DNA from: Candidatus Poribacteria bacterium
Lineage (GTDB): Bacteria > Poribacteria > WGA-4E > PCPOR2b
NCBI GenBank assembly: GCA_965222435.1
Contig: OZ244950.1
Span: 1,707,273 to 1,771,272 of the forward strand
DNA: 64,000 nt
Direction: 5' to 3'
The position numbers and the translations under genes are program-made. The notes below the pieces were generated by a model. That model was not told the origin of the DNA and made no database searches. It saw nothing but the letters and a program-made list of their open reading frames with translations. Numbering within the stretch: the stretch's first letter is position 1; the number at the start of each line of letters is the position of its first letter. Shown here piece after piece: positions 2,266-55,865 of this stretch.

Positions 2266-3084
2266 ATGAAAGATACCGAAGCCGTTACCCTTACCCCCGC
2301 ACAACGGCTGCATTTCGACATCTACGGTTTTGTACTATTGGAAAACGTCTTGACCCCCGATGAAGTGGCTCGCATGAAGGACGCGCTCCATCGAATGAAA
2401 GCCGATCCGGACCTCGAGTCCAAGCGGGTCTACACCCATCAGCGTGGTGAACACCATGTCCTGCTGGGCAATCTGGTGGAGTATGACCCTGCCCTGCTGG
2501 AATATGCCGCCCATCCCAAACTGGTGCCGCTCGTTGAGGAGGTAGTCGGTGGCAAGGTGCGCCTTGAGGAGACTGAGGCGATTATCAACCGCAGAGATCC
2601 GGAAGCGGATATCGAGGAACTTCACAAACGACGCTATAACCCCACCGGATTGCATCGTGGGACACAGCACGGCTGGGGAACTTACATCGAACAGAGCAAA
2701 TTTCACTGTATCTTCGTTAAGACGCTGACCTATCTCACTGATGTGGGACCCGACGACGGGGGCACCTGCTTTATCCCCGGCAGCCACCGGCTCACTTGGG
2801 ATAGGGAAGAGATGATCGAAGCCGCCCTCTCTGATGACAACCTGATCTATCAGGTAGAGGCAACCGCTGGCTCGACCTTGCTCTTTCCGGAGTCACTCAT
2901 CCACAGCACGACCGCCATCCGCAGCGACAAGGAACGCACAATCCTAGTCGCTGGCTATACGCCGCCGATGGTGCGCGAATGGCCCGGAAACGAGATCAGC
3001 CCTGAGTTCGTCGAAACCCTACCCGAAGATATTAAGCCGCTTATCTCCGGAAGCGATAGCTGGCGTTGGGAAAGACGGTATTGA
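2266..3084 (+). CDS. phytanoyl-CoA dioxygenase (PhyH) family Fe(II)/2-oxoglutarate oxygenase
   Basis: 272 aa; LTDVGPDDGGTCFIPGSHRL and later HSTTA motifs typical of PhyH-like dioxygenases. Confidence 0.7.
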   Translation: MKDTEAVTLTPAQRLHFDIYGFVLLENVLTPDEVARMKDALHRMKADPDLESKRVYTHQRGEHHVLLGNLVEYDPALLEYAAHPKLVPLVEEVVGGKVRLEETEAIINRRDPEADIEELHKRRYNPTGLHRGTQHGWGTYIEQSKFHCIFVKTLTYLTDVGPDDGGTCFIPGSHRLTWDREEMIEAALSDDNLIYQVEATAGSTLLFPESLIHSTTAIRSDKERTILVAGYTPPMVREWPGNEISPEFVETLPEDIKPLISGSDSWRWERRY

Positions 3085-4413: not shown

Positions 4414-5979
4414 ATGAAGGGAAAGAAAAAATCGTTACGGTTGGGGCGTGTCTTGTGCACTCTCCTTATGGCGTCGTTGATTCTCCTACTCTGCGGAATA
4501 CCGGTGGCAAATGCACAAACGTCCCAGCAAATCGCCAAAAAAGCACTAGCAGCGACGGTGCTCTTAGTCATGGAAGACGCTAATAGCCGGCCGCTTTCAA
4601 TCGGTAGTGGATTCTTCGTGCAACCCAACCAGATTGTAACCAACTTTGACGTTATCGAAGGTGCCGTTAAGGGCTACGCAAAACGCGTGGGTGAAAAAAC
4701 GAAACGCGACATTGAAGGTGTCACCGGATTTGACGAGCAAGGGACTCTGGTTATACTAAAGGTGTCGGGCTCTGATGTTCAGCCGCTTCCCCTAGGCGAT
4801 AGTAACAAGGTTGGGATTGGTGAGACCGTTTATGTCGCGAGCAATCCAAAAGGAGATTTGGAAGGCACATTCTCGAAGGGCCTTATTAGTGGACTTCAAG
4901 GGGATTCAACCAACAAACAACTCCAGATGACGGTTCTGATTTATCCAGCGAGTAGTGGAGGTCCCGTGCTAAACGGAATGGGTGAAGTGATAGGTGTTTC
5001 GGTGGCAACCTTCCGCAGAGGGCAGAATCTTAGTTTTGCCATTCCTTCAAACGATCTCACAGCACTCGCCGCTACAGTTGGCCCCGCGATACCGTTGTCG
5101 AAATGGCAACAACTTATGTCTTCCGCTATAGGCAATTTGAAGGGGATTTTTAGCGATTATAAGGGTGCTATCGCTGACTTGGACACTGCTATCCGACTTG
5201 ACCCTGATAATTTCTTTGCTTACTTTAACCGGGGAGTTGCCAAGGGTGAGTTGGGTGATTATAAGGGTGCCATCGTTGATTTTGATACCGCTATCCGACT
5301 CAAACCCGATTATGCCGCTGCCTACTTTAATCGGGGAACTATCAAAGTAAAATTAGGACAACACTTCGCCGCTATCGCCGACTATGATACTGCTATCCGA
5401 CTTAAACCCGATTATGCCAAAGCCTACGATAGTCGGGGGACTGCCAAGGCAGCATTAGGACAACATTTCGCCGCTATCACCGACTATGATACTGCTATCC
5501 GACTCAAACCCGATGGTGTCATTGCCTACTTTAATCGGGGAACTACCAAGGCAGAATTAGGACAACACTTCGCCGCCATCGCCGACTATGATACTGCCAT
5601 CCGACTCAAATCCGATTATGCCGCTGCCTACGGTAATCGGGGGATTGTCAAGGCAGAATTAGGACAACACTTCGCCGCTATCACCGACTATGATATTGCC
5701 ATCCGGCTTAAACCTGATAATGTCATTAACTACCTTAATCGAGGAAATGCGAAGGCAGAATTAGGACAATATTCCGATGCTATCACTGACTACGATACCG
5801 TCATCCGACTCAAATCCGATTTTGCCAAAGCCTATTATAATCGGGGATTGGCAAAGTACGGCTTGAGTCGGTCCATGGAGGCAAAGCAAGATTTTCAAAC
5901 GGCATTGAAACATGCGGATCAGGCTGGCGATGCGCTTCTCAAAACCCAAATTGAGTCGGCGATTCGAGACCTCCACTAG
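4414..5979 (+). CDS. secreted trypsin-like serine protease with C-terminal TPR repeats
   Basis: N-terminal signal peptide; S1-like motifs (GSGFFV, PASSGGPVLN); about seven consecutive 34-aa TPR units (AIADYDTAIRLKPDYAAAYFNRG...). Confidence 0.65.
   Translation: MKGKKKSLRLGRVLCTLLMASLILLLCGIPVANAQTSQQIAKKALAATVLLVMEDANSRPLSIGSGFFVQPNQIVTNFDVIEGAVKGYAKRVGEKTKRDIEGVTGFDEQGTLVILKVSGSDVQPLPLGDSNKVGIGETVYVASNPKGDLEGTFSKGLISGLQGDSTNKQLQMTVLIYPASSGGPVLNGMGEVIGVSVATFRRGQNLSFAIPSNDLTALAATVGPAIPLSKWQQLMSSAIGNLKGIFSDYKGAIADLDTAIRLDPDNFFAYFNRGVAKGELGDYKGAIVDFDTAIRLKPDYAAAYFNRGTIKVKLGQHFAAIADYDTAIRLKPDYAKAYDSRGTAKAALGQHFAAITDYDTAIRLKPDGVIAYFNRGTTKAELGQHFAAIADYDTAIRLKSDYAAAYGNRGIVKAELGQHFAAITDYDIAIRLKPDNVINYLNRGNAKAELGQYSDAITDYDTVIRLKSDFAKAYYNRGLAKYGLSRSMEAKQDFQTALKHADQAGDALLKTQIESAIRDLH
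5150..5870 (+). repeat. tandem ~102-bp repeats encoding TPR units
   Basis: Near-identical 102-nt units visible at nucleotide level (gctatccgactcaaacccgat... recurring), in-frame within the protease gene. Confidence 0.6.
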
Positions 5980-6084
5980 CGAGGCAGTAATACCACACAA
6001 AAGGGGAACTTGGAATTCTTGACTTTGAGATAGTGGAATGATGTTGTCTAACAAGCCATTGGAAAGTGAAACAACGATGGAACA

Positions 6085-6963
6085 GTGTTTGATGAAGGGA
6101 GCGCGTTGATTGTGATTTTCTATAAATACGTTACCGCAGAACGAATTGATATTCTTCAAAATCGCCTAATCCGGTTCACGCAACCTGACGCGTTGAATGA
6201 TCCCTTTGAAGCTAAACCGCATTTCCACGCATTCGCAACAAAGGCGGGGCTTGCAAGTGCCTTTGCAGATATGATTAGGCAGGCTCCTACTGTTGTATGG
6301 GAAGACTTCCGGAGAGTAACACAAACCAACTTAGATCGACGAGCGTTCGCTGATAAACTTGAGGGAGATCCCGATTATGCTGATTGGCTATATAAGAATG
6401 TTGGTTTGCCGGACCCCCTTCCTAAGGAACGGAAAAAAGTGAGGAAATGGTTTAAGGTTGTAGGCATCCTATCCCTTTCCGAAACATGGGATAATCTGCT
6501 CATGTGGGCACACTATGCCGAAGAACACACCGGTTTTGTTCTTATGCTTGACGGTTCCCATGATTTCTTCAAAGGAGATAATTCTTTACTTGGGTTTGCA
6601 AAACCTGAACGTGTTGAATACAAATCGGAGCGTCCGAGTACAACAATTGAAGAGGTAACCGTGCCAGAGATCTTCCTGACTAAAGGTTTCGATTGGAAAT
6701 ATGAGAAAGAGTGGCGGTATTTGAAGTACCTCAACGGTGCGGACGAGCGACGCGAGGAACCCAATACTTATCCTGTGGAGCTCTTCAGGTTGCCCCTCAA
6801 GTGCATAAGGGGTGTAATCCTTGGGTGTCGCAGATCTAAAGAATTAGAAAATAACATCGTTGCCTTACGACGCGATGATCCGGAGTTTGGGCACTTGCAA
6901 ATCCTACAAGCACGTGCATCTACAAGGCGTTACCGGCTAGGGATAGAGGAAATAAAAACCTAA
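6085..6963 (+). CDS. DUF2971 family protein
   Basis: N-terminal FYKY...LNDPFE motif followed by LSLSETWDNLLMWAHYAEEHTGFVLMLD, characteristic of DUF2971. Confidence 0.5.
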   Translation: MFDEGSALIVIFYKYVTAERIDILQNRLIRFTQPDALNDPFEAKPHFHAFATKAGLASAFADMIRQAPTVVWEDFRRVTQTNLDRRAFADKLEGDPDYADWLYKNVGLPDPLPKERKKVRKWFKVVGILSLSETWDNLLMWAHYAEEHTGFVLMLDGSHDFFKGDNSLLGFAKPERVEYKSERPSTTIEEVTVPEIFLTKGFDWKYEKEWRYLKYLNGADERREEPNTYPVELFRLPLKCIRGVILGCRRSKELENNIVALRRDDPEFGHLQILQARASTRRYRLGIEEIKT

Positions 6964-7112
6964 CCTGCCCTTGCACCTCCCTGCTTTAATACTTTATCAC
7001 GATAGAAGGAGATCAAAACGATGATAGATTATATGGTTCCAATCCTTCGCATCGCTCAGTCTGAGGATGAAGATCCAATCTTTTTCAAGCATACCAGACA
7101 AGGAAAAAAAAG

Positions 7113-8246
7113 ATGTTAAAAATTATTGACAACGGCATCATTTCCCACCAGAAAGAGCGGGGAGCGTACATGCCCGTGATCACCCCCCTCACAGACGGTA
7201 GTTTCATCGCCTGTCAGCATGTCGGGCAGGGGCTAGGCACACCGGACAATCATATCGAGATACTTCGTTCAATGGATGGGGGCGCAACATGGGTCAATGA
7301 AGGGAGCATCCATCCCGGCGGCACGCCTATTGCTTTGAATCCCGATGAAATCGGGGCGGACGGATGGTCTTATCGGGGTCCAAAGATTAGCGAGGTTCCA
7401 GACGGTCGCTTGGTGATGAACGCTACCCGTTTCGAGAACGAGGGCGGCACGCTCTTTGACACGGAATCGGAAGCCTTGCAGCGTCCGGAGATTCTGCTGT
7501 TCTGGTCAGAAGATCAAGGCAAAACGTGGTCAGAACCGCAGGTCGTGCCGGTAGACCTACCGCCCGAAAAATACACATGGAACGGGGCTGGACCTCTCTT
7601 GCAACTCGTGCCGGATCGGTGGATGTACCCCCTCGAAACGTGGAAGCCCGAAGGCTATGAAGGTCCTCCCGATCAGAAGGCAGCGGCTGTATTCTCCGCA
7701 GATCAGGGAGAAACGTGGGGAGAGTTCACCGTCGTCGCAGATGACCTCACAGGCGCGTTGCTCTGGTGGGATCAGATGTGCGCCTTGTTACCGGATGGAC
7801 GCATCTATACCCTAATCTGGACGCACCAGTACGGAACCTCCGAGGACTTGACGAACCACTGGGTGATCTCTGAAGACGGTGGACGTACTTGGTCCGAACC
7901 CCGACCGACAAATCTGCGCGGTCAGGTCTGCACCCCCATCCCGCTGCCCGACGGTCGCGTGGCGGCAATCTACAATTTCCGACACGAACCCCAAGGCATC
8001 CATGTGGCACTGACCGAAGACCTTGAGAATTTCGACGTAGAGAACGAGGTCGTGGTCTTTGATGCAGGAAAAGAGGCAACCCTCGGCGAACCTGAGAACG
8101 AGAACTTCCTCGCTGAACACATGCAGATCGCTTTTGGCAAGCCCGGTGGGACAACCCTGCCGGACGGGGATGTGATGACCTATTTCTGGTGTACTGTGGC
8201 GGGAGTCACCCATACGCGCTGGGTGAAATTGCGATTGGAAGGCTAA
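7113..8246 (+). CDS. BNR/Asp-box repeat protein (sialidase-like glycosidase)
   Basis: Four Asp-box motifs S/D-x-D-x-G-x-T-W (MDGGATW, DQGKTWSEP, DQGETWGEF, DGGRTWSEP). Confidence 0.65.
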   Translation: MLKIIDNGIISHQKERGAYMPVITPLTDGSFIACQHVGQGLGTPDNHIEILRSMDGGATWVNEGSIHPGGTPIALNPDEIGADGWSYRGPKISEVPDGRLVMNATRFENEGGTLFDTESEALQRPEILLFWSEDQGKTWSEPQVVPVDLPPEKYTWNGAGPLLQLVPDRWMYPLETWKPEGYEGPPDQKAAAVFSADQGETWGEFTVVADDLTGALLWWDQMCALLPDGRIYTLIWTHQYGTSEDLTNHWVISEDGGRTWSEPRPTNLRGQVCTPIPLPDGRVAAIYNFRHEPQGIHVALTEDLENFDVENEVVVFDAGKEATLGEPENENFLAEHMQIAFGKPGGTTLPDGDVMTYFWCTVAGVTHTRWVKLRLEG

Positions 8247-8253
8247 TAAAAGG

Positions 8254-8309
8254 GAAACCGAGTTTTTTCCCCGGTCACGGGATCCTCTCGGACTTGAAAA
8301 CTCGGTTTC
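8254..8309. terminator. palindromic hairpin (gaaaccgagtttt...aaaactcggtttc) followed by T-rich run
   Basis: 13-bp inverted repeat with extended loop, 8 nt after the BNR gene stop, then tttctttctt; member of a recurrent hairpin family (see 12439, 33510). Confidence 0.4.
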
Positions 8310-8381
8310 TTTCTTCCGCTATCGGTTTTTGTTGTATGCTTTCTTAACACGAGCTAGCAATGATAGAAAGGAACAGTTCAG

Positions 8382-9143
8382 ATGGATTGGCAAAAGGATT
8401 CACAACAACTCAAAGATGCCTTTGACCGAGATGGATTTGTGGTCATTCCCGGTTTCTACACCCCGGAAGAGACAGCGGCGTTAAACGCTCATATTGATCG
8501 GTTCATTGCGGAGACGTTGCCCGGATTGCCGTCGGACGCAGCCTTTTACGAAGCCAAGGGGCAGACCGAAAGCATTATGCGGTTACAGGGCATGGCGTCT
8601 TACGACAGCCATTTCAAGGAACTTACCGAGAGCGATCGGTTTGCCAAGCTGGCGGAATTGCTGCTAGACGATGGGGTTATAAGTAAAAATATGGAGTGGT
8701 TCACGAAACCCGCCCGCAGCGGTGCAGAGACGCCACCCCATCAAGATGGGTTCTACTTCATGCTCGAACCAAACGAGGCACTGACGTTGTGGCTGGCATT
8801 GGATACGGTGAATGATGAGAACGGCTGTATCCACTATGCACGGGGTTCTCACCGCCGAGGCATGAGACCCCACCGACAGACAGCCGTGTTCGGGTTCTCC
8901 CTAGGAGTTACGGACTACGACGAAGCGGATTATCAAGAGGAAGCAGCCATCCATGCCGCGCCGGGCGATATGATCGTGCATCACTGCATGACGATTCATC
9001 GCGCAGGTTCCAACCCCACCACGAACCCGCGCCGGGCACTGGGGCTTGTCTATTATGCTCAACGTGCTAAGGCGGATGCAGAACGTCAGGCGGCGTACAA
9101 GAAAGAGCTAATGGAACTATGGGAAAAAGAGGGGAAACTTTAG
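8382..9143 (+). CDS. phytanoyl-CoA dioxygenase family protein
   Basis: 253 aa; PhyH-like pattern (FVVIPGFYTPEE, HQDGFYF, IHYARGSHR, HHCMTIHRAGSN). Confidence 0.7.
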   Translation: MDWQKDSQQLKDAFDRDGFVVIPGFYTPEETAALNAHIDRFIAETLPGLPSDAAFYEAKGQTESIMRLQGMASYDSHFKELTESDRFAKLAELLLDDGVISKNMEWFTKPARSGAETPPHQDGFYFMLEPNEALTLWLALDTVNDENGCIHYARGSHRRGMRPHRQTAVFGFSLGVTDYDEADYQEEAAIHAAPGDMIVHHCMTIHRAGSNPTTNPRRALGLVYYAQRAKADAERQAAYKKELMELWEKEGKL

Positions 9144-9199
9144 AGGTTAGGGCTTGTGCATTTCAGTTCCAAAAGTGAGGTCGGACGCAGACTTCGCTG

Positions 9200-9343
9200 A
9201 TTTTCGCAGATTGCTTTGAACCCCGATCTCATCGGGGAAAAACAGAAAGGCTCATATAAAAAGAAAGTGCAAAATGCGAAGCGAAATTGTAGGGGCGGGG
9301 TCTCCCCGCCCGTAGTACGGGTTGGGGGACCCAACCCCTACAA
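9200..9343. repeat. composite intergenic repeat block (hairpin repeat + GTAG-flanked palindromes, REP/BIME-like)
   Basis: ttgctttgaaccccgatctcatcgggg at 9200..9226; gtagg-ggcgggg...ccccgcc-cgtag followed by gggttggg-gga-cccaaccc-ctac; homologous copies elsewhere in window. Confidence 0.5.
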
Positions 9344-9401
9344 AAACTCGGTTTCTGTTGCACGATTTCTTAACACGAGCGACCATTAATAGGAGTGAGC
9401 G

Positions 9402-10178
9402 ATGCTGACCGATGCACAACTCTACCATTTCGCTGTTCACGGTTGGGTACTCCAAGAGGACGTATTCAGTCCTGAAGAGGTCGATGCCTTCAAGTGCGGA
9501 CTTGATCAACTCTATGAAAGAAAAGTCTCGACAATGAAGGACTCCGAAGACATCAAGAACATCAACAACATGGTGAACTACGACCCAATCTATCGGGATT
9601 GGATGATGTCGCCGAAAATCCTCCCCGTTCTGAAGCAGCTCTTGGGAACACCACCCCGTTTTGAGTGCTGTCACGCGATGATAAAATCCCCACACCCCGA
9701 CCGGACGAAACGGCGCGATGAACTTCGGGATACGGAAAAGATGGGGTGGCATCGCGGCATTCGACCAAAATATGGTATCGTGCCGGCGAACAACCATCCC
9801 TACATCAACACAACCTTCCTCAACAACGCCACCTACCTGACGGACGTTGATCCTGAACATGGCGGCACAATGATCCTAGACGGCTCACACCGAATCGAGG
9901 CGAAGGATTGGAAAGAAATTTTCGATCCCGCGATGGTCGTTCAGATTGAAGCAAAGGCGGGATCGGTGATGCACTTCACGGAGGCGTTGGTTCATACCGG
10001 TGTCCCGATCCTCTCCGAGCAAACTCGCTATACGATGTTCTACGGTTTCACTCCGCCGTGGATGCAGTGTTGGCCCGGATGTAGCCCGACACAGGAAGTC
10101 ATTGACGCCAGCGAAGGGGAACTCAAGGAAATCCTCGGAGGACGCACGGGATATATGGGACAGTACGGACCTGAGTGA
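9402..10178 (+). CDS. phytanoyl-CoA dioxygenase family protein
   Basis: 258 aa; LTDVDPEHGGTMILDGSHR and FTEALVHTG motifs. Confidence 0.7.
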   Translation: MLTDAQLYHFAVHGWVLQEDVFSPEEVDAFKCGLDQLYERKVSTMKDSEDIKNINNMVNYDPIYRDWMMSPKILPVLKQLLGTPPRFECCHAMIKSPHPDRTKRRDELRDTEKMGWHRGIRPKYGIVPANNHPYINTTFLNNATYLTDVDPEHGGTMILDGSHRIEAKDWKEIFDPAMVVQIEAKAGSVMHFTEALVHTGVPILSEQTRYTMFYGFTPPWMQCWPGCSPTQEVIDASEGELKEILGGRTGYMGQYGPE

Positions 10179-10233
10179 GTAGAACCCTACGAACCCAAAA
10201 TCTGAATCCCTTGTGAGAAGGAGGGTATATTCA

Positions 10234-11040
10234 ATGCTATCCGATTTGGAAGTTGGACAATTTTGGACATTCGGGTTCACTGTCTTGAGAGGCTGCCTGA
10301 GCGAAAAAGAGGTAGACCGTCTACAGGAAACACACAATCGCGTCATTGCAGACGCACCGGTCTACAACTATTTCGCCGAGAACGGCACCCGGATGCTGAG
10401 CCCTTTCGTCCAAGCGGACGATGAATTCGCAGAGTTAATCGAGCATCCCGGTGTGATGGAAGCCATGCGCGATATCTGGGGGACAGAGTGTCTCTATATT
10501 GCCGGCAGCGATATGTGGGCGAACCGAGATGACACCCCTTGGCACACCGACGGTCAGCCGGGGCGACAGAACGTCACGCTCAAGACCGCCATATACCTCG
10601 ATGAGCAGTCCAAAGATCTGGGATCGTTGAACCTGATTCCCGGCAGCCACCATCCTGAATACTCTGCAGCACTCTTCCGATCCTGCGGTTACTGGGATAG
10701 GGGAAGACCCCGCCTGCGCCTCGATCCCCATGCAATTCCGGGAGTTCTCTCCGTCCAGACCTGTCCCGGAGATGTTGTGTTGTGGGACAATCGCCTGTGG
10801 CACTCCGCCTTCAAACGCAAGGACGGTCGTCCCCGGCGGACGATGTTTATCGGCTATATACCGGACCCCCAAGATGACCTGCTCGCGATCAAAGACCTTC
10901 GTACGACGATTGAAACTCAATCAACTGAGCAGCAGCCGTTCGTCTATAGCAAGGAGATGATGGAAAAGGGTTGTCCTAGGCGCGAGAAGATGGCGGTACG
11001 GCTAGAGGAATTGGGCGTGGAAAAGGTGAGAGAAACATAA
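10234..11040 (+). CDS. phytanoyl-CoA dioxygenase family protein
   Basis: PhyH-like (LNLIPGSHH, VVLWDNRLWHSAF); start set at internal ATG preceded by aggagg. Confidence 0.65.
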   Translation: MLSDLEVGQFWTFGFTVLRGCLSEKEVDRLQETHNRVIADAPVYNYFAENGTRMLSPFVQADDEFAELIEHPGVMEAMRDIWGTECLYIAGSDMWANRDDTPWHTDGQPGRQNVTLKTAIYLDEQSKDLGSLNLIPGSHHPEYSAALFRSCGYWDRGRPRLRLDPHAIPGVLSVQTCPGDVVLWDNRLWHSAFKRKDGRPRRTMFIGYIPDPQDDLLAIKDLRTTIETQSTEQQPFVYSKEMMEKGCPRREKMAVRLEELGVEKVRET

Positions 11041-11089
11041 CTCTCCGGCAAGAAAACCCACGGAAACATGCGAAAGAAGGAAAAAGACG

Positions 11090-12166
11090 ATGACGGATAG
11101 ATCTCATCCGCTGCGCGTCGGCGTTGTTGGTTGTGGTGGTTTTGGACGCAATGCCTATGTGAACAATGTCGTTGAAAACCCTGACGCCAGCTTGGTCGCA
11201 CTCTGCGACGTCGATCTGGCACAGGCGGAAGCCGCCGCACGTGAAGTCTTTGATGAGGGTGGCAGAGAACCGCGTCCGGCACTTTACGCAGACTATCAAG
11301 CGATGATCGACCAAGAATCTCTTGATGTCGTCATGGTTGGAACGATGGCAGGTGTCCGTCCGCGTGTGGCAATCTATGCGTTGAATGCCGGTGCGCACGT
11401 CCTCGCTGCCAAGCCGATGGCACCGTCCTTGGCAGAGGCGGAGGAGATGCTCCAGAAGGCAAAGGAAGCGGACAGGATTCTGATGGTCGGCTATAACTTC
11501 CGATTCCGCGATGATGCACAGGTCGTGCACCGCTTTATCCGTGACGGTGGCATCGGGACACCCCGCTTTGCCCGTGCTTGGTCATTTGCCCCTAGCGTAC
11601 CAATCCGCGGATCCCACTACAAAGCAAGGTCAGGGGGCGGCTCACTCGCCAGAACTGGGGTTCACGCGATGGACTTGGCAATCTGGTTCCTTGGCAATCC
11701 ACCGCTCATCTCCGTGCATGGCCGGGCGGTCTCACGCTTTGCCACCCTTCCTGCACTGCCCTCCGAATTGGAACCCCTCCGAGGTGACTACGACGATCCA
11801 GATCTGGTCAGCGGCTATGTCCACTTCGCCGATGGCGTCACGCTGTCCGTCGAGAGTATGTGGATGGCACCGCCGCAGATCGGCGATAACGGTGTCGAGG
11901 TGTGGGGAACGCAAGGCTACGTTTCGGTGACACCGTTACAATTGCTGACTTGGCAGGATGGCGATTACGCCGATGTGACCGAGCAGGTTGCTCCGGGCGT
12001 TGCCAATTCCTTCCATGACCACTCGAGCAACCGGCTATGCCGCGAGGTCTTTCATTTCATCGACTGCGTTCTCGGCAGAGCGACACCGCTTATAACGCCG
12101 CAAGAGATGTGGACGGATCAGGCAATCGTCGATGGAATCTACGCCGGCACGAAAGTAGTGAAATAA
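11090..12166 (+). CDS. Gfo/Idh/MocA family oxidoreductase
   Basis: N-terminal Rossmann motif LRVGVVGCGGFGRNAYV and family-typical length (358 aa). Confidence 0.75.
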   Translation: MTDRSHPLRVGVVGCGGFGRNAYVNNVVENPDASLVALCDVDLAQAEAAAREVFDEGGREPRPALYADYQAMIDQESLDVVMVGTMAGVRPRVAIYALNAGAHVLAAKPMAPSLAEAEEMLQKAKEADRILMVGYNFRFRDDAQVVHRFIRDGGIGTPRFARAWSFAPSVPIRGSHYKARSGGGSLARTGVHAMDLAIWFLGNPPLISVHGRAVSRFATLPALPSELEPLRGDYDDPDLVSGYVHFADGVTLSVESMWMAPPQIGDNGVEVWGTQGYVSVTPLQLLTWQDGDYADVTEQVAPGVANSFHDHSSNRLCREVFHFIDCVLGRATPLITPQEMWTDQAIVDGIYAGTKVVK

Positions 12167-12198
12167 GTTGCTAGTTCCGTTGAATCTGACAGCACGTA

Positions 12199-12423
12199 GG
12201 TTGGGTTGAACGACATTCATAAAACATACTTAAATCGCTCCTCTTGGATTGCGGAAATCTATTCAACTTGAAATCTCACAAATTCTAGTGAAACCCAACT
12301 CTTGATACATGGATTAGATGTTGGGTTTCACTGTATCTATTTATAAAACAGTGTTATCGAAAGACTAAACCACGATCGTCATTGATAGCGATGCGCTTTG
12401 AACAGTTCAACCCAACCTACAGC
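12199..12423. repeat. MITE-like element with 16-bp terminal inverted repeats
   Basis: gtaggttgggttgaac at 12199..12214 and its reverse complement gttcaacccaacctac at 12408..12423 flank an AT-rich core with an inner inverted repeat (agtgaaacccaac / gttgggtttcact). Confidence 0.35.
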
Positions 12424-12438
12424 CAACACTGTGCGGAA

Positions 12439-12470
12439 GAAACCGAGTTTTGAAGAAAAAACTCGGTTTC
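12439..12470. terminator. palindromic hairpin gaaaccgagtttt-gaag-aaaaaactcggtttc between convergent genes
   Basis: Perfect 13-bp stem; lies between the 3' ends of the + strand oxidoreductase and the - strand redoxin gene; same family as 8254 and 33510. Confidence 0.45.
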
Positions 12471-12512
12471 AGGGCAAATAACTTTACCCAAAATGGCTTT
12501 TCAAACAGGTTC

Positions 12513-13070
12513 TTAGAGAAACGCTTTCTCTCTCGATTCCTCCGAGACATCCCACGCACGGTCATATTCATAGTCGTCCCGACGCGCTAACAGTGCCCGC
12601 AGATCGTGTCGCAGTTCCTCCACGGTGGGTCTTCCAACAAACCACCAACCGTTGTAAATCTTGTAGATCTCCCGGTCCGCGTTAAGGACGAAAGTATAGG
12701 GGATAGGAATCGGCGAGTGGCGGGCGTCCGTGTTGTCTACAATGTCCAATTCATTGATCAATGCCCGGTCAAGGTCAATCAGGAAGGGCCACGTCGCGCC
12801 GATACGTTCACGAAGCGCCCTCGTTGTTTCCTGATCATCAACTGAGACAGCAATTAGCCTACAGTAGTTGACTTCTAGTTCGGGCTGCAAATCTTTTGCG
12901 TAATTCTCCAACTGGAGAACATCCTTCGGTCAATATGCCCCACGCCAGAAGACCAAGACCGTGGGCCAACCACGCATCAAATCCTCCAGCGTTCTGACCA
13001 TGCCATCTTGATCGGGACGTTCAAAGTTCGGGAATATGTTGCCCGGTATCAAATCTTCACGGATCTTCAT
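12513..13070 (-). CDS. thioredoxin-fold redoxin (peroxiredoxin-like) with in-frame TGA: candidate selenoprotein
   Basis: ATG at 13070..13068 preceded by aggagg (5-nt spacer); reading frame is continuous with listed ORF 12513..12911 except for one TGA at 12932..12930; translation ...TVLVFWRGAY-U-PKDVLQLENYAKDLQ... places TGA at the expected redox-Cys position. Confidence 0.6.
12904..12919 (-). promoter_or_regulatory. candidate bacterial SECIS hairpin
   Basis: uucucc-AGUU-ggagaa hairpin beginning 14 nt after the in-frame UGA, apical loop contains GU. Confidence 0.4.
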
Positions 13071-13146
13071 TGTAACCTCCTGCCTTACGAAACCACATGT
13101 ATAGGACTTATCAGTTCACCCAACCAATGAACTCATAATGAACTTC

Positions 13147-13170
13147 TCACGCATTACGTATCACGTTTTA
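13147..13170 (-). repeat. 7-nt-periodic stop-codon motif at gene end (TAA-TGA-TAA-TGA)
   Basis: Minus-strand stops at 13170, 13163, 13156, 13149, covering all three frames. Confidence 0.4.
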
Positions 13171-14346
13171 CGAGGCTTGTACCTCTTCCCATCGCTCCGT
13201 CTCCCATGAGCGTTCAATCGCGCCCAACACCTTAGCCACAGCCAACGCCTCACGAAAAGCAGGCTCACCTTGGTGTCCATCTCGGATCGACTTCAAGAAT
13301 TGATAGGCTTCGATCATCTTCAAATCTTCGTAGCCTAAACCGACACCGGGGCCGGGATTGAAATGTGCATGAAACGGGTGTTCGGGACCACTCACGATGC
13401 GAGTGTAACCATTAGGCGCACCATCGTTGTCAGAAAGAAACAGATGGAGTTCATTCATACGCTCAAAGTCCCAGTGTACCGCGCCGCGCGTACCGTGCAC
13501 CTCAAACGCCATCTGACACTCGGGACCATTTATGACACGGCACCCTTCCAGTGTGCCATGCGCCCCATTAGAAAATTGCACCAATGCACCGACATAATCT
13601 TCGTTGGTGACTTCGCCTATTGGACCATCTGTGCGGACAGAAAAATGCGTACCTTCGCCGGGGGTAGCAAGCGGACGTTCTGAGAAGAAAGTCTCGCGGT
13701 TGCCCACCAAACGGTTGATCGGACCGGCTATCATCTGCGCCATATCAACGACATGCGACATCAGATCGCCCAAAGTACCTAGACCCGCCACCTCACGCTG
13801 AAAACGCCACGACAGCACAGCGTGCGGATTGCTAGCGTAACCCGCAAAGAAACGCCCTCGATAGTGTGTGAGCCTGCCGAGACACCCTTCCTCAATCAGC
13901 TGCCGGGCGTACTGCACAAGCGGTGTCCATCGGTAATTATAGCCCACACAGGTCAAAACGCCAGCCCGTCGAGCGGCATCTTCGATCGCAGCGGTCTCTT
14001 GTGGATTTCGACCAACAGGTTTCTCACAGAAGATATGCTTCCCCGCTTCGGCAGCCGCTCTCGCAATTTCGAGGTGCATATTGTTTGGCGCGGTGATGTT
14101 GACGAGCTCCACCTCCGGATCAGCAATAACCTGTCTCCAATCCGTAGCGTATCTTTCAAAGCCTAAAAACGTCTGTGCTTCACGGGCACGGGCTTCCACC
14201 TCATCGGCGCAGATGACCAAGCGCGGCTGAATGTCACAGTCCTGAAAGCGGATCGGAATCTGTCGGTAGGAGCGGCTGTGCACAGTTCCCATCCACCCCA
14301 TACCGATAACACCGATGCCTATCGTTCGTGCCATAGCTGACCTCAA
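13168..14346 (-). CDS. Gfo/Idh/MocA family oxidoreductase
   Basis: N-terminal [16 protein letters not shown] Rossmann motif; 392 aa. Confidence 0.75.
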
Positions 14347-14362
14347 AGTTTAGGGGCTTCCG

Positions 14363-14986
14363 CTAAGTGCGTTCTAATGCGATCTTGCATATCGTCTTTT
14401 CTGCGTCATCGCCGTACCAGAGATGGGTGCCATCCCACGTCAACCCATGTGGTTCGCCGGGACACTCAAAGGAATCGAGCACCTCCCCGGAATTCGGGTC
14501 AATTTGGGAGATAATGTGCGTGTCGGTGTCTGCGCTCCACAGCGTCGCTCCATCCCAAGCAATCCCGTGAGGCCGTGTGCCGGGTGAAGGAAATTCTGCT
14601 AGTATCTCCCCTGTTTCAGGAGACACCTTATAGTGCCGATCTGACTGCACATCAGCGCTCCACAGAGATTCGCCATCCCAAGCGAGACCGTGCGGACTTG
14701 GTCCCGGTGGTGGAAATGAGGTGACAACTTTCAAATCCGACACAGTTAATTTGTATAGGATCTTTTCCCTGATATCAGTATACCAGAAATAGGTGCCGTC
14801 ACATTCGAGCCCGCTGGACCCGGCTGTAGGCGGGTTTACGGTAAGGATAACCTCACCGGTCTGCGGATTAATTTTATGTAACGTCCCGCCACCTTCGACA
14901 CTCCAAATGGCTCCGCCTTGCCAAGCCAGCCCGTTGGTGCCAGGTCCCGGACAGTTAAAGCTAGTTGCGATTGATGCTTTTAACAT
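14363..14986 (-). CDS. beta-propeller-like repeat protein (glutaminyl-cyclase-like blades)
   Basis: Four repeats of P-x-G-x-x-PHGLAWDG-x-x-LW; start set at internal ATG 14986 preceded by aggaga. Confidence 0.45.
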   Translation of the reverse strand: MLKASIATSFNCPGPGTNGLAWQGGAIWSVEGGGTLHKINPQTGEVILTVNPPTAGSSGLECDGTYFWYTDIREKILYKLTVSDLKVVTSFPPPGPSPHGLAWDGESLWSADVQSDRHYKVSPETGEILAEFPSPGTRPHGIAWDGATLWSADTDTHIISQIDPNSGEVLDSFECPGEPHGLTWDGTHLWYGDDAEKTICKIALERT

Positions 14987-15184: not shown

Positions 15185-16402
15185 TTACGGTCGTACCACC
15201 GATCCATCTGCCTTCCGATCTTCGGCGGCGTAATTGGGTCTTTTGGCTTGTTCCGCGTTCAGCATTTGCGCCGCCTTCGCCTCGTCAATGTCAATCCCCA
15301 GTCCCGGTTGGTCATTGGCGTAAAGGTATCCGCCTTCAAGAATCGCGTGACCGGGGAAGATGTCGAGTTCCTCTTGACCGAAGTGATTCTCCTCCTGAAT
15401 ACCGAAACTCCAACTCGCCAGATCTAAGTGCATCGCCGCCACTTGATTTACGGGGTCATTGTCTCCCCCCTCCTGCCATGCGGTATTGACCCCGAACCAT
15501 TCACAGAGGGTGGCAATCTTACGACACGGGGTGATGCCGCCGGCCTTTGATACCCGGACCCGGACGAAGTCAATCAGCCGCTCGGTGATGAGGGCTGTCC
15601 ATTCATGAGGATTGATAAATAGTTCGCCCATCGCCTGCGGAGTGGTGCACTGCTGCCGAATGAGACGAAACCAATCAATCTGCTCAGGTGAGAGGACATC
15701 CTCAAGAAAGTAGAGCCGGTAAGGCTCTAGGAGCTTCGACAACGTCACCGCGCATTGAGGGCGGAGGTGCTCGTGGACATCGTGCGTGAGTTTCGGTCCG
15801 AACCCCAACTTCGATCGCAGATATTCAAACATTTTCGGGATGCTTTCAAGGTATGCTTCATCATCGAAGGCAGGCGCATTGGACCAAGCATTCCTCGGCT
15901 GCCCGGCTTTATCAGCTTCAATGAATCCACCGCCCCCATACCCACCAAGCTGACATCGAATGACCGAGTACCCCTCTTCCATGTAGCGACGGATATCGTC
16001 CTCAAGTTCGACGAAATCGCCGCCACCGGCATGGGCATAGCACGGCACGGCAGAACGACAGGGACCACCGAGAAGTTGATAGACCGGCATCCCCGCCTCT
16101 TTCCCCTTGATGTCCCAAAGTGCCATGTCAATGCCGCCCAATGCAGTGTTCGAGATTGCCCCATTCCGCCAGTAACCACTGGTAAGGGTGGACTGCCAGA
16201 TATCTTCAATATGCCCAACCTCCCGACCAATCAGGCGGGGGGCGATGCACTCCTCAATCGCTGTGACGACGGTTTGTGCATGGTAATGGTCGCTGGCAGA
16301 ACCGATGCCGTAGAGCCCCGGCTGGTCGGTGGTGATTTTCACAATAACCCAAGTTCCATTTACCCGTGTACGAATACATCGAATTTCTTTGATTTTTGCC
16401 AT
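15185..16402 (-). CDS. enolase-superfamily dehydratase (mandelate racemase / muconate lactonizing enzyme family)
   Basis: 405 aa; N-terminal capping domain pattern (IKEIRCIRTRV...WVIVKITTDQPGLYGIGSAS) and barrel-domain acidic residues typical of sugar-acid dehydratases. Confidence 0.65.
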   Translation of the reverse strand: MAKIKEIRCIRTRVNGTWVIVKITTDQPGLYGIGSASDHYHAQTVVTAIEECIAPRLIGREVGHIEDIWQSTLTSGYWRNGAISNTALGGIDMALWDIKGKEAGMPVYQLLGGPCRSAVPCYAHAGGGDFVELEDDIRRYMEEGYSVIRCQLGGYGGGGFIEADKAGQPRNAWSNAPAFDDEAYLESIPKMFEYLRSKLGFGPKLTHDVHEHLRPQCAVTLSKLLEPYRLYFLEDVLSPEQIDWFRLIRQQCTTPQAMGELFINPHEWTALITERLIDFVRVRVSKAGGITPCRKIATLCEWFGVNTAWQEGGDNDPVNQVAAMHLDLASWSFGIQEENHFGQEELDIFPGHAILEGGYLYANDQPGLGIDIDEAKAAQMLNAEQAKRPNYAAEDRKADGSVVRP

Positions 16403-51938: not shown

Positions 51939-53315
51939 ATGCAGATCAACGACTCAATTACCGTTGAACAACTCAGACCGAAACTTGACCATCTGTTTGA
52001 GCTTTCGGGAAAGAAAATTCTGGCAATCGAAGACACATGGCTCCCCTCAAAAGGAACGCCGGTGTTCACTGTCGCCGGTCAGTATACCACGCGAGGTTGG
52101 ACAGAATGGACGCAGGGATTCCAATTCGGCTCCGCACTGCTGCAATTCGATGCAACAGATGACGAGCAGTTCCTCGAAATCGGACGGAAGAACACGGTCC
52201 AAAAGATGGCACCCCATCTGACACATATCGGCGTACACGACCACGGATTCAACAATGTCTCAACCTATGGCAATTTACGGCGCATGATCCTTGAAGGGCG
52301 CATCTCACACAACGATTGGGAACTCCATTTCTACGAACTTGCGTTGAAGGTGTCGGCGGCGGTGCAGGCGAGTCGCTGGTCAAAGATCAAAGATGGAAAA
52401 GGCTACATCCCCTCTTTCAATGGACCTCACTCGCTTTTCGCCGATACCATCCGCTCACTCCGGGCGTTGGCGTTGGGACATAGCTTAGGGCATGTGCTGA
52501 TGGGCGAAAATGACCAGCCAATCGCTTTACTGGAGCGGTTGTTACACCACTCCGAGACGACCGCAGCTTATAATGTCTACTACGGCGAAGGACGTGATGC
52601 GTTCGACGTACGTGGGCGCGTTGCACACGAATCGATCTTTAACATGAATGATGGCAATTACCGCTGTCCAAGCACACAGCAGGGGTACTCACCGCTTACG
52701 ACATGGACGCGGGGACTCGCATGGCTTATCACCGGCTATGCCGAGCAGCTTGAGTTTTTTGAGACACTGGCAGACGACGATCTCACCCCTTATGGCGGGA
52801 AGGCAGGGGCAACCGCGCATATACTAAAAGCCGCCGAAGCAACCTGCGATTTTTATGTTGAGAACACAGCCACAGACGGTATCCCGTATTGGGACACCGG
52901 GGCACCGGGGCTGCCTCGGCTTGGATCGTATCTCCAACAACCCGCAGACCCATTCAACGAGGTTGAACCTGTTGATAGCTCCGCAGCCGCCATCGCCGCG
53001 CAAGGGTTAATCCGATTGGGAAATCATCTTAAAAAACAGGGGGAGCAGGCAACTGGGAAACGCTACTATCAGGCGGGATTAACGGTCGCTGCCACGCTCT
53101 TTTCCGAATCGTATCTTTCAGAATCTGACGAACATCAGGGCTTAATCCTGCATTCAATCTACCATCGTCCAAACGGTTGGGATTATATCCCCGAAGGCAG
53201 CGCGATCCCTTGTGGTGAATCGTCAATGTGGGGCGACTACCACGCACGAGAACTTGGACTGCTCTTGCTACGGGAATTGGAAGGTCAACCGTATCTGACT
53301 TTTTGGGGAAACTAG
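51939..53315 (+). CDS. hypothetical protein (possibly alpha/alpha-barrel glycoside-hydrolase-like)
   Basis: 458-aa ORF; function not recognisable with confidence. Confidence 0.35.
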   Translation: MQINDSITVEQLRPKLDHLFELSGKKILAIEDTWLPSKGTPVFTVAGQYTTRGWTEWTQGFQFGSALLQFDATDDEQFLEIGRKNTVQKMAPHLTHIGVHDHGFNNVSTYGNLRRMILEGRISHNDWELHFYELALKVSAAVQASRWSKIKDGKGYIPSFNGPHSLFADTIRSLRALALGHSLGHVLMGENDQPIALLERLLHHSETTAAYNVYYGEGRDAFDVRGRVAHESIFNMNDGNYRCPSTQQGYSPLTTWTRGLAWLITGYAEQLEFFETLADDDLTPYGGKAGATAHILKAAEATCDFYVENTATDGIPYWDTGAPGLPRLGSYLQQPADPFNEVEPVDSSAAAIAAQGLIRLGNHLKKQGEQATGKRYYQAGLTVAATLFSESYLSESDEHQGLILHSIYHRPNGWDYIPEGSAIPCGESSMWGDYHARELGLLLLRELEGQPYLTFWGN

Positions 53316-53363: not shown

Positions 53364-54104
53364 ATGCAATTAACAGACAAACAGGTGCAACAGTTTCACG
53401 AAGAAGGCTACTTGATTTTTGAAAATCTAATCCACGGCGAAAAACTCAAAGCCTATCAGGATTTCTTTGATGAACTGGTTGAGCGCAGCCGCACCCTCCC
53501 AGTTAACCTTCCACACTGGACATTTGAATTTAGTGAAGACCACGAACCAATTCCGGGGTTTTTACACAAAATTCAAGGCGTGTGCGTCGTTGAGCCGAAG
53601 GTATTGGATCTCGCCCAAGAGGCGGAAATCCTTGACCGAGTCCAAGCACTCGTCGGTCCCGACATTGACGTATTCGGCACCAAGTTCTTTCCCAAGCTGC
53701 CGAATGGCGGCACCTCGGTAGACTGGCATCAGGACAACTTCTACTTCGGCACAAACACAAACCGAATTGTCAGTTGCGGTATTTACCTTCAAGACGCTGA
53801 TCGTGATAACGGCTGCCTGAGAATTGTTCCGAAAAGTCACCTGTCCCAAGCGATTGTAGAACATCATCGGAGGCAGGGGGCACACGGGAGTTGGACAGAG
53901 GTAGACGAATCGAAAGCCGTCGATGTGGAGGTGCCCGGTGGCACGGTAGTTTTTTTCTCATCGAACCTCCTTCACGGAACGTATGAAAATCGTAGTAATC
54001 GCCCTCGCTACAGCACTGCTTGGCACTATATCCCCGGCGATCTGTCCCTAGAACGGTTCCCACGTGACGGTTACGAGGATCGGCACATTGTTCGGGGGGA
54101 TTAA
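53364..54104 (+). CDS. phytanoyl-CoA dioxygenase family protein
   Basis: VDWHQDNFYF, IVPKSHL, LLHGT motifs. Confidence 0.7.
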   Translation: MQLTDKQVQQFHEEGYLIFENLIHGEKLKAYQDFFDELVERSRTLPVNLPHWTFEFSEDHEPIPGFLHKIQGVCVVEPKVLDLAQEAEILDRVQALVGPDIDVFGTKFFPKLPNGGTSVDWHQDNFYFGTNTNRIVSCGIYLQDADRDNGCLRIVPKSHLSQAIVEHHRRQGAHGSWTEVDESKAVDVEVPGGTVVFFSSNLLHGTYENRSNRPRYSTAWHYIPGDLSLERFPRDGYEDRHIVRGD

Positions 54105-54123: not shown

Positions 54124-54915
54124 ATGCTCAGTCACTCTGAAATAGAATCATTCCTTCAAGACGGCTATGTCATCCGTAGAGGTGTATTATCCCAAACGGA
54201 CATTGAGACATATCGCGCCGCTGTCGATTCCATCCTACACAAATGCCGCATCGAAAAGGTGCATCAATATTTGCGCTACGTTGATGGCGAACAAGATGAC
54301 ATCTGGGGCGTAAATAACGTCTTTCATCCAAGCATCAGAGAAGCAGCCCTCGTCGAATCGCTTGGGCATCCCCAGATTTTGGATGTCATCGAAAGCCTAA
54401 TCGGGACGCGGTTGCGCTATCATCTGTGCACACTGTTGGTCAGCCCAGAACGCAAGCCGTATCACATCAACTGGCATCGCGATTCAACAAGAGATGGCGA
54501 GGTGCCACGCGAACAACTGATAGCAAAACTCAGGAGCAGCGCTCAACTGAACGGCGCGTTATACGACGATGAAACCCTCTTCATCGTCCCCGGCAGTCAC
54601 CGACGGGAGATCACCGACACCGAGCGGCACATCCTACAAAATTCGCCCAAAGCCGACATGCCCAACCAGATGGCTGTCCAACTAAAGGCGGGCGATATTG
54701 TTTTCTACAATTCCAGCCTGCTCCACAAAGGGTATAACCGGTCTAGCGTGATCCGCCAAACACTACATTACGCGCTTGTGGTTGCACCCCCCGAAGGGGA
54801 ACCGCCAAACCCGGATAGCCCCACCGGTCAGGAGTGGCTGAACGATTCATCATTCCTTGAAAGTCTCAACCCGCGAATCAAACCGCTTTTCGATAATTGG
54901 TTAAAATACGGATAA
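54124..54915 (+). CDS. phytanoyl-CoA dioxygenase family protein
   Basis: INWHRDS, IVPGSHRRE, LLHKGYN motifs; start at internal ATG 54124. Confidence 0.65.
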   Translation: MLSHSEIESFLQDGYVIRRGVLSQTDIETYRAAVDSILHKCRIEKVHQYLRYVDGEQDDIWGVNNVFHPSIREAALVESLGHPQILDVIESLIGTRLRYHLCTLLVSPERKPYHINWHRDSTRDGEVPREQLIAKLRSSAQLNGALYDDETLFIVPGSHRREITDTERHILQNSPKADMPNQMAVQLKAGDIVFYNSSLLHKGYNRSSVIRQTLHYALVVAPPEGEPPNPDSPTGQEWLNDSSFLESLNPRIKPLFDNWLKYG

Positions 54916-54929
54916 CAGAGGAGGGATTT

Positions 54930-55865
54930 ATGGCAACACATCACTTTGAACCTAATATTTATTACACCGCAATCGGGACACACGAACCGGTGCTCCACAT
55001 CGACAGCGGTGATACCGTCGTGACAACAACCGTTGATGCCGGTGGCGTTGATGCTGCCGGAGAGGCAGTCACTGAAGGGGGAAACCCGCAGACCGGACCG
55101 TTTTATATCAACAATGCAGTGCCGGGCGATACACTTGTCGTTCACTTTGATCGCCTAGTCCCTAATCGCAAGATGGGTAGAACCTCAACGGTAATCGCTC
55201 CACACGTCCTAGACGCAGAATATGTAGCATCCAATCTGCCGGAGAACGGTCGCGGAGACTGGGAAATCGATCTGGACAAGTGGACAGCGACCCTCGTTTC
55301 GCCGGAAACGAGCCTCGGTAGGCTCACACTGCCGCTGGAACCGATGGCGGGATGTTTTGGTGTTGCCCCACCACGTGGGCAGGCAATCTCCACGGCGACC
55401 TCCTCAACGCACGGCGGGAACATGGACTACCGCGGTTTTTGTGAAGGAGCTACTGTTTATCTTCCCGTTTTTGTGGACGGTGCCCTGTTTCATATCGGGG
55501 ATGGACACGCTGTACAAGGCGACGGTGAGATTGTCGGAACCGGGATTGAGATCTCGTTTGACGTGCAGTTTACGGTCAACGTAATCAAAGGCAAAGAGAT
55601 CGGTTGGCCCCGAGCGGAAAACGACGACTATATCCTAACGGCTGGAAATGCACGTCCCTTGGATCAGTGTGTGCAGCACGCGACAACGGAAATGGTTCGT
55701 TGGCTTAACGAACTCGGCTTGGACGGGAACGCCCCCCACATCCTGCTCGGTCAGTGTGTGGAGTACGATATGGGCAATGTGTATGATCCGGCGTATACGA
55801 TGGTCTGCAAGGTGAAAAAGAGTATCTTGCGGGATATTGGTTTAACGCTGAATCCACTAATCTGA
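54930..55865 (+). CDS. acetamidase/formamidase family protein
   Basis: FmdA/AmdA-like pattern (HFEPNIYYTAIGTHEPVLHIDSGD, GDGHAVQGDGE). Confidence 0.7.
   Translation: MATHHFEPNIYYTAIGTHEPVLHIDSGDTVVTTTVDAGGVDAAGEAVTEGGNPQTGPFYINNAVPGDTLVVHFDRLVPNRKMGRTSTVIAPHVLDAEYVASNLPENGRGDWEIDLDKWTATLVSPETSLGRLTLPLEPMAGCFGVAPPRGQAISTATSSTHGGNMDYRGFCEGATVYLPVFVDGALFHIGDGHAVQGDGEIVGTGIEISFDVQFTVNVIKGKEIGWPRAENDDYILTAGNARPLDQCVQHATTEMVRWLNELGLDGNAPHILLGQCVEYDMGNVYDPAYTMVCKVKKSILRDIGLTLNPLI

Follow-up and report, generated by a model that had tools for sequence, protein, structure and literature searches.

Six PhyH-family oxygenase genes in a poribacterial genome segment, two of them with a predicted HygX-type metal site

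Poribacteria are among the most abundant symbionts of sponges. The phytanoyl-CoA dioxygenase family PhyH (pfam05721) ranks first in abundance among the Pfam families on their genomes and accounts for more than 1.9% of poribacterial genes, whereas its share stayed below 0.049% in all other genomes available at the time (Kamke et al. 2014, PLoS One 9:e87353, PMC3909097). The 305 poribacterial PhyH sequences of that study fell into 193 clusters at 60% identity, their functions were mostly not assigned, and a phnY/phnZ pair for phosphonate use was proposed among them (PMC3909097). PhyH transcripts are abundant in situ (PMC5087111), and a poribacterial PhyH protein demethylates 2'-O-methylcytidine (NAR 2025, PMC12709175). 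A further described system is HygX, the orthoester-forming oxygenase of hygromycin B biosynthesis, which is reported to carry the motif H-X-G...E-X3-H, in which the acidic metal ligand has been relocated and Lys137 fills the gap (PMC13374393). Here we analyze six PhyH-family genes in a stretch of 64,000 nucleotides from a Candidatus Poribacteria bacterium (contig OZ244950.1, positions 1,707,273 to 1,771,272; hereafter the window, from whose first letter all coordinates are counted), and we name each gene by its start position. The description by Kamke et al. fits the window, which represents the same phylum and the same family, and the PhyH expansion itself is already published for Poribacteria and not new here. 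That description, however, comes without metal-site variants, without a HygX-type subclade, and without a recurrent pairing with Gfo/Idh/MocA oxidoreductases, and its phnY/phnZ pair is not present in the window. What is new here is that two of the six genes, 2266 and 9402, are predicted from their sequences to encode the rare rearranged metal site that is reported for HygX.

The products of the six genes are PhyH-family oxygenases of the Fe(II)/2-oxoglutarate type. The original prediction, which was drawn from the letters of the window, had placed PhyH-family genes at these six positions and had made the assignment depend on a profile search, and all six proteins score above the PF05721 gathering score of 22 bits in Pfam: 2266 with 73.7, 8382 with 118, 9402 with 55.7, 10234 with 60.1, 53364 with 114.9, and 54124 with 54.2 bits. 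All are intact genes on the plus strand, and 8382, 9402, and 10234 are indeed consecutive, as had been stated, with spacings of 258 bp and then 55 bp. The open reading frames (ORFs) of 10234 and 54124 have alternative GTG starts at 10213 and 54064, the positions used here being the first internal ATGs. A hidden Markov model (HMM) of the six members, searched against 215 stop-to-stop ORFs of at least 80 amino acids, recovers these six alone, and no seventh PhyH gene was found in the window. With background frequencies taken from PMC3909097, the occurrence of six PhyH genes among about 61 window ORFs has a Poisson probability of about 1e-3 at the poribacterial background of 1.9% of genes and of about 1e-12 at the frequency of ordinary genomes (<0.049%); the window is a locally dense sample of the phylum-wide poribacterial PhyH expansion.

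In a six-way alignment, the first histidine, the distal histidine, and the 2-oxoglutarate-binding arginine (R224 in the numbering of 2266) are invariant; this arginine lies about ten residues past the distal histidine in all six proteins and is also conserved in the homologue alignments. The carboxylate position of the H-x-D motif is occupied by aspartate in four proteins: 8382 (8382..9143; H120-Q-D122, H206, R217), 10234 (10234..11040, or from the GTG at 10213; H-T-D, H, R), 53364 (53364..54104; H122-Q-D124, H204, R215), and 54124 (54124..54915, or from the GTG at 54064; H118-R-D120, H201, R211). In 2266 (2266..3084) and 9402 (9402..10178) it is occupied by glycine, and the motif reads H130-R-G132 and H117-R-G119, respectively. 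The active-site comparison suggested with the original prediction, which looked for a His-x-Asp...His triad and the arginine, thus holds in full for 8382, 10234, 53364, and 54124, whereas in 2266 and 9402 the aspartate is replaced and both histidines and the arginine are retained as in the others. This failure of the His-x-Asp check in two of six proteins is the most informative result of our analysis. Homologues down to 44% identity all keep the H-R-G of the 2266 and 9402 families, and this motif occupies the canonical H-x-D column, on which alignments run in both directions agree. Moreover, a glutamate four residues before the distal histidine is invariant in both families (FPE-SLI-H and FTE-ALV-H), corresponding to E209-x3-H213 followed by R224 in 2266 and to E194-x3-H198 followed by R209 in 9402; in the four canonical paralogs, this position is taken by Cys, Asn, Ser, and Ser. 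All motif residues of 2266, including K152, are invariant in 17 homologues at 67–97% identity, and the canonical motif of 8382 is likewise invariant in 17 homologues. The 9402 family has a nearly invariant pair, Asn141/Asn142, at the position of the lysine. Finally, 2266 and 9402 share a conserved insertion of 12–15 residues directly after H-x-G (HRG-xxxx-W/Y-G), which is basic in the 9402 type and forms a low-confidence segment of the AlphaFold2 (AF2) models.

The similarity of these two proteins to HygX is apparent at the level of sequence, profile, and predicted fold. The best solved relative of the 2266 protein is HygX (4xc9/4xcb, E 2e-12 in phmmer), the family profile detects HygX with E 1.6e-14 and ranks SyrB2 and CytC3 well below it, and hhalign aligns family and HygX over 213 columns with 99% probability and E 4.8e-18. 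For the AF2 model of 2266 (predicted local distance difference test, pLDDT, 74.8), the top 15 Foldseek matches are all HygX chains; for that of 9402 (pLDDT 84.4), the top match is HygX 4xca with E 2.9e-15 and a template modeling (TM) score of about 0.68–0.70. Both models match PhyH-fold structures with Foldseek E values of 1e-13 to 1e-15, which predicts a double-stranded β-helix fold. K137, E202-x3-H206, R217, and the histidine of the 'GSH' motif of HygX align stably with the 2266 and 9402 families, E202-x3-H206 doing so in MAFFT, HMMER, and hhalign, with K137 falling on the invariant K152 of the 2266 family and on Asn-Asn in the 9402 family. The H-X-G...E-X3-H motif reported for HygX (PDB 4XC9/4XCA/4XCB/4ZPI) and the 2-oxoglutarate-binding arginine are common to HygX, 2266, and 9402, and an equivalent of Lys137 is present in 2266. 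There are also differences: identity to 2266 and 9402 amounts to just 18–24%, the window proteins carry the insertion after H-x-G, the 9402 type has Asn-Asn in place of the lysine, the context in the window is catabolic and without an orthosomycin gene cluster, and the clade of the window proteins is conserved across many phyla. Neither the window nor the related loci contain aminoglycoside or orthosomycin biosynthetic genes. On the strength of sequence comparison and structural models, we place 2266 and 9402 in a clade that is widespread and has HygX as its closest solved relative.

To what extent this clade is populated can be gauged from a search of a two-family profile (2266 and 9402) against 1.84 billion representative proteins, which yielded 4050 proteins with E<=1e-3; 663 of them reach E<=1e-10, and 95 reach E<=1e-30. 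We took a motif census of the 98 best representatives that are aligned at all seven key positions: the combination HxG+Lys+Ex3H+Arg, that is the signature of 2266 and HygX, occurs in 43 of the 98, HxG+Asn+Ex3H+Arg, the signature of 9402, in 9, and both carboxylates (HxD and Ex3H) in about a dozen. Because of this search and census, we regard the relocated-carboxylate site as a trait of a sizeable environmental clade and not of one antibiotic enzyme. Both H-R-D and E-x3-H are found in the clade members P0163, P0166, P0182, P0198, P0208, P0209, P0223, and P0226; such dual-carboxylate members may represent intermediate stages through which the carboxylate ligand migrated in evolution.

The paralogs had been described as divergent, and this is borne out by pairwise identities of 18–33% among the six proteins, the closest pair being 2266/9402 with 33%. 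For the 2266, 9402, 8382, and 53364 types we compared relatives outside the phylum. The 2266 type reaches 67–70% identity in Dictyobacter, Chthonomonadaceae, and Latescibacterota, the 9402 type 77–78% in Latescibacterota and 49–54% in about 33 Caldilineaceae genomes, and the 8382 type 50–60% in Latescibacterota and Gemmatimonadetes; the 53364 type, whose family is widespread in marine metagenomes, shows 53–71% identity at 80 metagenome loci. Because the tested paralogs are far closer to orthologues in other phyla than to each other, their divergence is ancient and not the product of local tandem duplication, which agrees with the old expansion originally proposed. Within the phylum, a scan of species-representative genomes finds the window at 94–97% identity in many complete Poribacteria chromosomes from metagenome-assembled genomes (MAGs), and synteny of the stretch 2266–16402 extends over about 17 species representatives of Poribacteria, in which the order is kept and every paralog is 89–99% conserved. 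We consequently speak of six anciently separated subfamilies, as judged by these identities, and not of recent duplicates; whether they arose by ancient duplication or by accretion through horizontal transfer is a distinction that the sequences at hand do not draw. The exact 53364 protein has no matching record that we could find. In two metagenome contigs (L089, L096), a tandem pair of the 53364 type occurs at 61–65% identity to the window protein, from which it follows that this subfamily duplicates locally elsewhere.

The nearest solved relatives of the remaining four proteins differ from one another. For 8382 they are EvdO2 (4xab, E 5e-23) and then PHYHD1 (E 1e-16), for 53364 human PhyH (2a1x, E 3e-14), and the sole solved relatives of 10234 and 54124 are AviO1 (4xaa, E 1.4e-3) and SnoK (5epa, E 2e-9), respectively. 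Counting HygX for 2266 and 9402, five of the six proteins have a nearest solved relative that acts on sugar moieties. EvdO2, AviO1, and SnoK, sugar-directed oxygenases with the PhyH fold that belong to everninomicin, avilamycin, and nogalamycin biosynthesis, share with 8382, 10234, and 54124 the canonical HxD...H; the similarity is low, however, and the window is without a biosynthetic cluster. The 2'-O-methyl-nucleoside demethylases PHYHD1/FJS are of the same Pfam family, and their poribacterial member is the phylum's only PhyH protein with tested activity, which is directed at a ribose O-methyl group; yet none of the six window proteins, at no more than 25–28% identity, is orthologous to them. 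The best values against the tested poribacterial demethylase are 25% for 53364 and 28%, over a partial alignment, for 8382, and we rejected orthology on this basis. Two further candidate identities were rejected as well: PhnY, for which the NF052437 model gives 53.7 bits against a cut-off of 500 and a neighboring HD-domain (PhnZ) gene is absent, and ectoine hydroxylase (TIGR02408), with 20–45 bits against a cut-off of 336.5 for all six proteins. The substrate diversification that had been read from the divergence of the paralogs is supported, though only indirectly, by the two metal-site architectures and the differing nearest solved relatives.

Around the PhyH genes, the window encodes further proteins of known families. 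Upstream of the consecutive trio lies a BNR_2 (sialidase-like β-propeller) protein without signal peptide (7113..8246, plus strand; PF13088, 53.8 bits), and 49 bp downstream of the 10234 gene follows a Gfo/Idh/MocA NAD(P) oxidoreductase (11090..12166, plus strand; PF01408, PF22725). On the minus strand, a second Gfo/Idh/MocA NAD(P) oxidoreductase (13168..14346; PF22725, PF01408, PF02894), syntenic in about 17 Poribacteria species, and an MR_MLE enolase-superfamily protein, probably an acid-sugar dehydratase (15185..16402; PF13378 121 bits, PF02746 70.5 bits), which is syntenic too, complete this region. The second PhyH group is preceded, 48 bp upstream of 53364, by a distant GH88-like (unsaturated glucuronyl hydrolase-like) protein of 458 amino acids (51939..53315, plus strand), which matches PDB 1vd5/2ahf with E 8e-10, has a Pfam GH88 match below the cut-off (E 0.018) and no Pfam match above threshold, and may, to judge from these similarities, be a divergent glycosaminoglycan-processing enzyme. 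The group is followed by an acetamidase/formamidase-family protein (54897..55865, plus strand), a partial PF03069 FmdA_AmdA match of 84 bits; from its listed TTG start, this gene begins before the 54124 gene has ended. The neighbors named in the original prediction are thus assigned to their Pfam families (BNR_2, two GFO_IDH_MocA proteins, MR_MLE, and FmdA_AmdA), but 'BNR glycosidase' and 'formamidase' are to be understood as family labels only.

Some of these arrangements recur in related Poribacteria. The core of BNR, 8382, and 9402 is retained even where identity has dropped to 86%, in the poribacterium L021. Two of the species representatives (L014 and L020) lack both 10234 and the downstream Gfo gene 11090, which suggests that the two form a unit that is present or absent as a whole while the rest of the locus is syntenic; in L010 they lie about 5 kb apart. 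Beyond close Poribacteria, a conserved operon of 8382, 9402, and 10234 was not found, and in a promoter and terminator scan of 6900–16600 such sites were no commoner than in shuffled sequences. The PhyH, BNR, and Gfo proteins all lack signal peptides, and we therefore take their chemistry to be cytoplasmic. The two convergent Gfo genes are 1 kb apart, and in the space between them are two minus-strand ORFs in different frames (12513–13070; 46 and 132 amino acids), which together, by eye from their translations, appear to resemble a thioredoxin-fold redoxin/AhpC-type protein and may reflect a frameshifted remnant or a sequencing error.

In other lineages, the gene context of HygX-type relatives suggests sugars as substrates several times independently. 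In about 33 Caldilineaceae genomes, a cluster comprises a Gfo gene, a sugar-binding protein, two permeases, two GNATs, a canonical PhyH gene, a further Gfo gene, the HygX-type PhyH gene, an α/β-hydrolase, and a GH109-like Gfo gene. In the cultured Dictyobacter, the order is GntR, the 2266-type PhyH gene, MR_MLE, and GH127, with a Gfo gene upstream; the MR_MLE directly after the 2266-type gene is merely 23% identical to that of the window. In Gemmatimonadaceae, UxuA-like triosephosphate isomerase (TIM) barrels and another PhyH gene lie near the HygX-type gene. A homologue from Actinophytocola adjoins two EryCIII-type glycosyltransferases, a short-chain dehydrogenase/reductase (SDR), and a major facilitator superfamily (MFS) exporter.

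Based on these observations we propose, with a probability of roughly 60%, that the window encodes six anciently diverged PhyH Fe(II)/2-oxoglutarate oxygenases, two of them HygX-type, that act in the cytoplasm on glycan-derived sugars and feed the enzymes encoded next to them. In 2266 and 9402, the relocated glutamate would supply the third metal ligand, as is reported for HygX. This relocation would open space next to the iron, which Lys152 would fill in 2266 and Asn141/Asn142 would flank in 9402, and the basic and aromatic loop of 12–15 residues after H-x-G would shape the substrate pocket. In the cytoplasm, all six enzymes would oxidize sugars set free from host or marine glycans, or metabolites derived from such sugars, at C–H (or O–H) positions, and the oxidized products would pass to the neighboring Gfo/Idh/MocA dehydrogenases, the enolase-family dehydratase, and the hydrolases. 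A wider and tentative extension of this proposal is that the HygX-type site (H-x-G...E-x3-H, with Lys or Asn by the iron) defines a large, phylum-spanning clade of cytoplasmic, sugar-directed 2-oxoglutarate oxygenases in the glycan catabolism of sponge symbionts and other bacteria. Such enzymes might oxidize acetal or anomeric C–H or adjacent O–H bonds, thereby removing glycosidic, ether, or ester decorations and handing keto or lactone products to Gfo/Idh/MocA enzymes. If true, this would amount to a non-hydrolytic route for recalcitrant host and marine glycans and to a first functional handle on the poribacterial PhyH expansion. A part of this expansion, as read from the sequences, carries the relocated-carboxylate site of HygX and sits in conserved clusters for sugar uptake and oxidation in several phyla, and the 2266 and 9402 types are concrete targets with a testable substrate class and hence a useful lead.

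Several observations weigh against this proposal. HygX holds both H102-G-G and H127-D-G, the loop alignment slides between them, and its first histidine could not be placed on H130 or H117 by MAFFT with and without bridging sequences, hhalign, the canonical HMM, or a PDB self-search. For the 9402 model, other PhyH folds nearly equal HygX in Foldseek, and the fold alone does not discriminate. The PDB is biased toward natural-product enzymes, and the sugar-acting nearest relatives may partly reflect this sampling. As to gene context, the synteny of 8382, 9402, and 10234 is lost at <=85% identity, the pairing of 53364 and 54124 as well as their GH88-like and FmdA neighbors are absent at the 80 metagenome loci, and the 2266-type gene is in some cases surrounded by housekeeping genes. 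Because these genomes contain many Gfo/Idh/MocA genes, a certain amount of chance co-occurrence is expected, and orthology of the partner genes between phyla was not found, as they match at family level only (23–26% identity). Finally, the neighbors of the 9402-type gene in Latescibacterota are a PMT_2 glycosyltransferase and an SDR. In this lineage (L001-L003, L025, L027, L028), the PMT_2 membrane glycosyltransferase gene begins 5 bp after the 9402-type gene at least in L001 and L002, a context unlike those in both Poribacteria and Caldilineaceae.

The substrates might instead be small non-carbohydrate metabolites in which sponges are rich, for instance phosphonates (PhnY-like), 2'-O-methyl nucleosides (PHYHD1/FJS-like), ectoine-like solutes, or lipids, in which case the sugar-related neighbors would be coincidental in a genome that holds very many genes of this kind. 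The phnY/phnZ pair proposed by Kamke et al. (PMC3909097) and the demethylation of 2'-O-methylcytidine by a poribacterial PhyH protein (PMC12709175) argue for this possibility, as do the matches of 8382, which scores best with methylphosphonate hydroxylase in NCBIfam and second best with PHYHD1 in the PDB, and the uninformative contexts of several homologues. We consider it plausible though not likely: the NCBIfam scores are far under the cut-offs (53.7 versus 500 bits, and 20–45 versus 336 bits for ectoine hydroxylase), the window has no HD-phosphohydrolase (phnZ) gene next to the PhyH genes, identity to the tested demethylase does not exceed 25–28%, and sugar-related contexts appear in four unrelated phyla. 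The same solved relatives that point to sugars, HygX, EvdO2, AviO1, and SnoK, are all natural-product enzymes, and the six proteins might accordingly tailor a secondary metabolite of the oligosaccharide or aminoglycoside kind and have no role in catabolism. The Actinophytocola homologue beside its two EryCIII-type glycosyltransferases, SDR, and MFS exporter fits such a role, and transcriptome annotations name mitomycin and fumonisin biosynthesis (PMC5087111). Genes for polyketide synthases (PKS), non-ribosomal peptide synthetases (NRPS), nucleoside diphosphate (NDP)-sugar formation, or glycosyltransferases are lacking in the window, however; the genes next to PhyH code for hydrolases, dehydrogenases, and a dehydratase, the cluster in Caldilineaceae begins with an ATP-binding cassette (ABC) transporter for sugar uptake, and the 2266 type is 67–97% identical across at least four phyla, unlike pathway-specific tailoring enzymes. 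We therefore judge a tailoring role to be unlikely.

A more specific alternative for 2266 and 9402 follows from their H-x-G motif itself, since Gly or Ala in place of the carboxylate of H-x-D is the hallmark of Fe(II)/2-oxoglutarate halogenases (SyrB2, CytC3, WelO5, BesD), in which the lost ligand makes room for a halide. Halogenated metabolites abound in sponges, H-R-G is invariant in the two families, and weak matches exist to the HalD Pfam family (E 0.007) and to the TIGR01762 model of chlorinating enzymes (E 1.6e-5). Yet an invariant glutamate occupies the position of the carboxylate donor reported for HygX and would compensate for the lost aspartate, the scores are far under the cut-offs (24.4 versus 226 bits for TIGR01762; 16.2 versus 26 bits for PF23169 HalD), and the paralog 53364 with its canonical H-Q-D scores higher on TIGR01762 (61 bits) than they do. 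Carrier proteins or NRPS genes are not encoded nearby, and SyrB2 and CytC3, as mentioned, rank well below HygX. We rejected the halogenase interpretation of H-x-G on account of the conserved glutamate and the model scores and hold it to be very improbable. As to how the cluster came about, the PhyH genes are adjacent and co-oriented, as would be expected if they had recently been duplicated in tandem on the spot and had then diverged rapidly. Physically adjacent pairs, however, are merely 18–23% identical, every gene is 89–99% conserved in the same order in about 17 species, and the tested types have orthologues at 50–70% identity in other phyla. Since neighbors are not nearest relatives, recent tandem duplication was rejected, and we assign it next to no probability.

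Beyond the PhyH genes and their neighbors, the window shows a number of further features. A PyrR-binding RNA element (RF00515) at 38491–38618 on the minus strand scores 54.5 bits against a gathering score of 54; among the run of minus-strand genes downstream of it are an amidohydrolase/dihydroorotase-like gene (36044–37318) and carA/carB (28399–32987). Several repeat proteins of the eukaryote-like kind that is typical of sponge symbionts are encoded at 4414–5979, 25203–27143, 44061–45239, and 45337–46536; the set comprises a fusion of trypsin and tetratricopeptide repeats (TPR), a leucine-rich repeat (LRR) protein that also has dockerin and FlgD-Ig domains, and a tandem pair of ankyrin-repeat paralogs. 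A protein of 540 amino acids encoded on the minus strand at 33565–35187 combines N6/N4 DNA methylase and Mrr-type restriction endonuclease domains and is a candidate for a fused restriction-modification enzyme. A minus-strand gene of the TnpB/IS605 OrfB type (57067–58389), in which OrfB_IS605 and a Cas12f1-like TNB domain are joined, is located after the second PhyH cluster and before a tandem pair of Amidohydro_2 genes (58556–59638 and 59731–60792). Finally, after a NucS_C/DUF7669 nuclease-like gene (61419–62345), the G+C content falls to 0.43 in the last 2 kb (61419–64000 region) as compared with about 0.50 elsewhere, and this end of the window may be acquired DNA.

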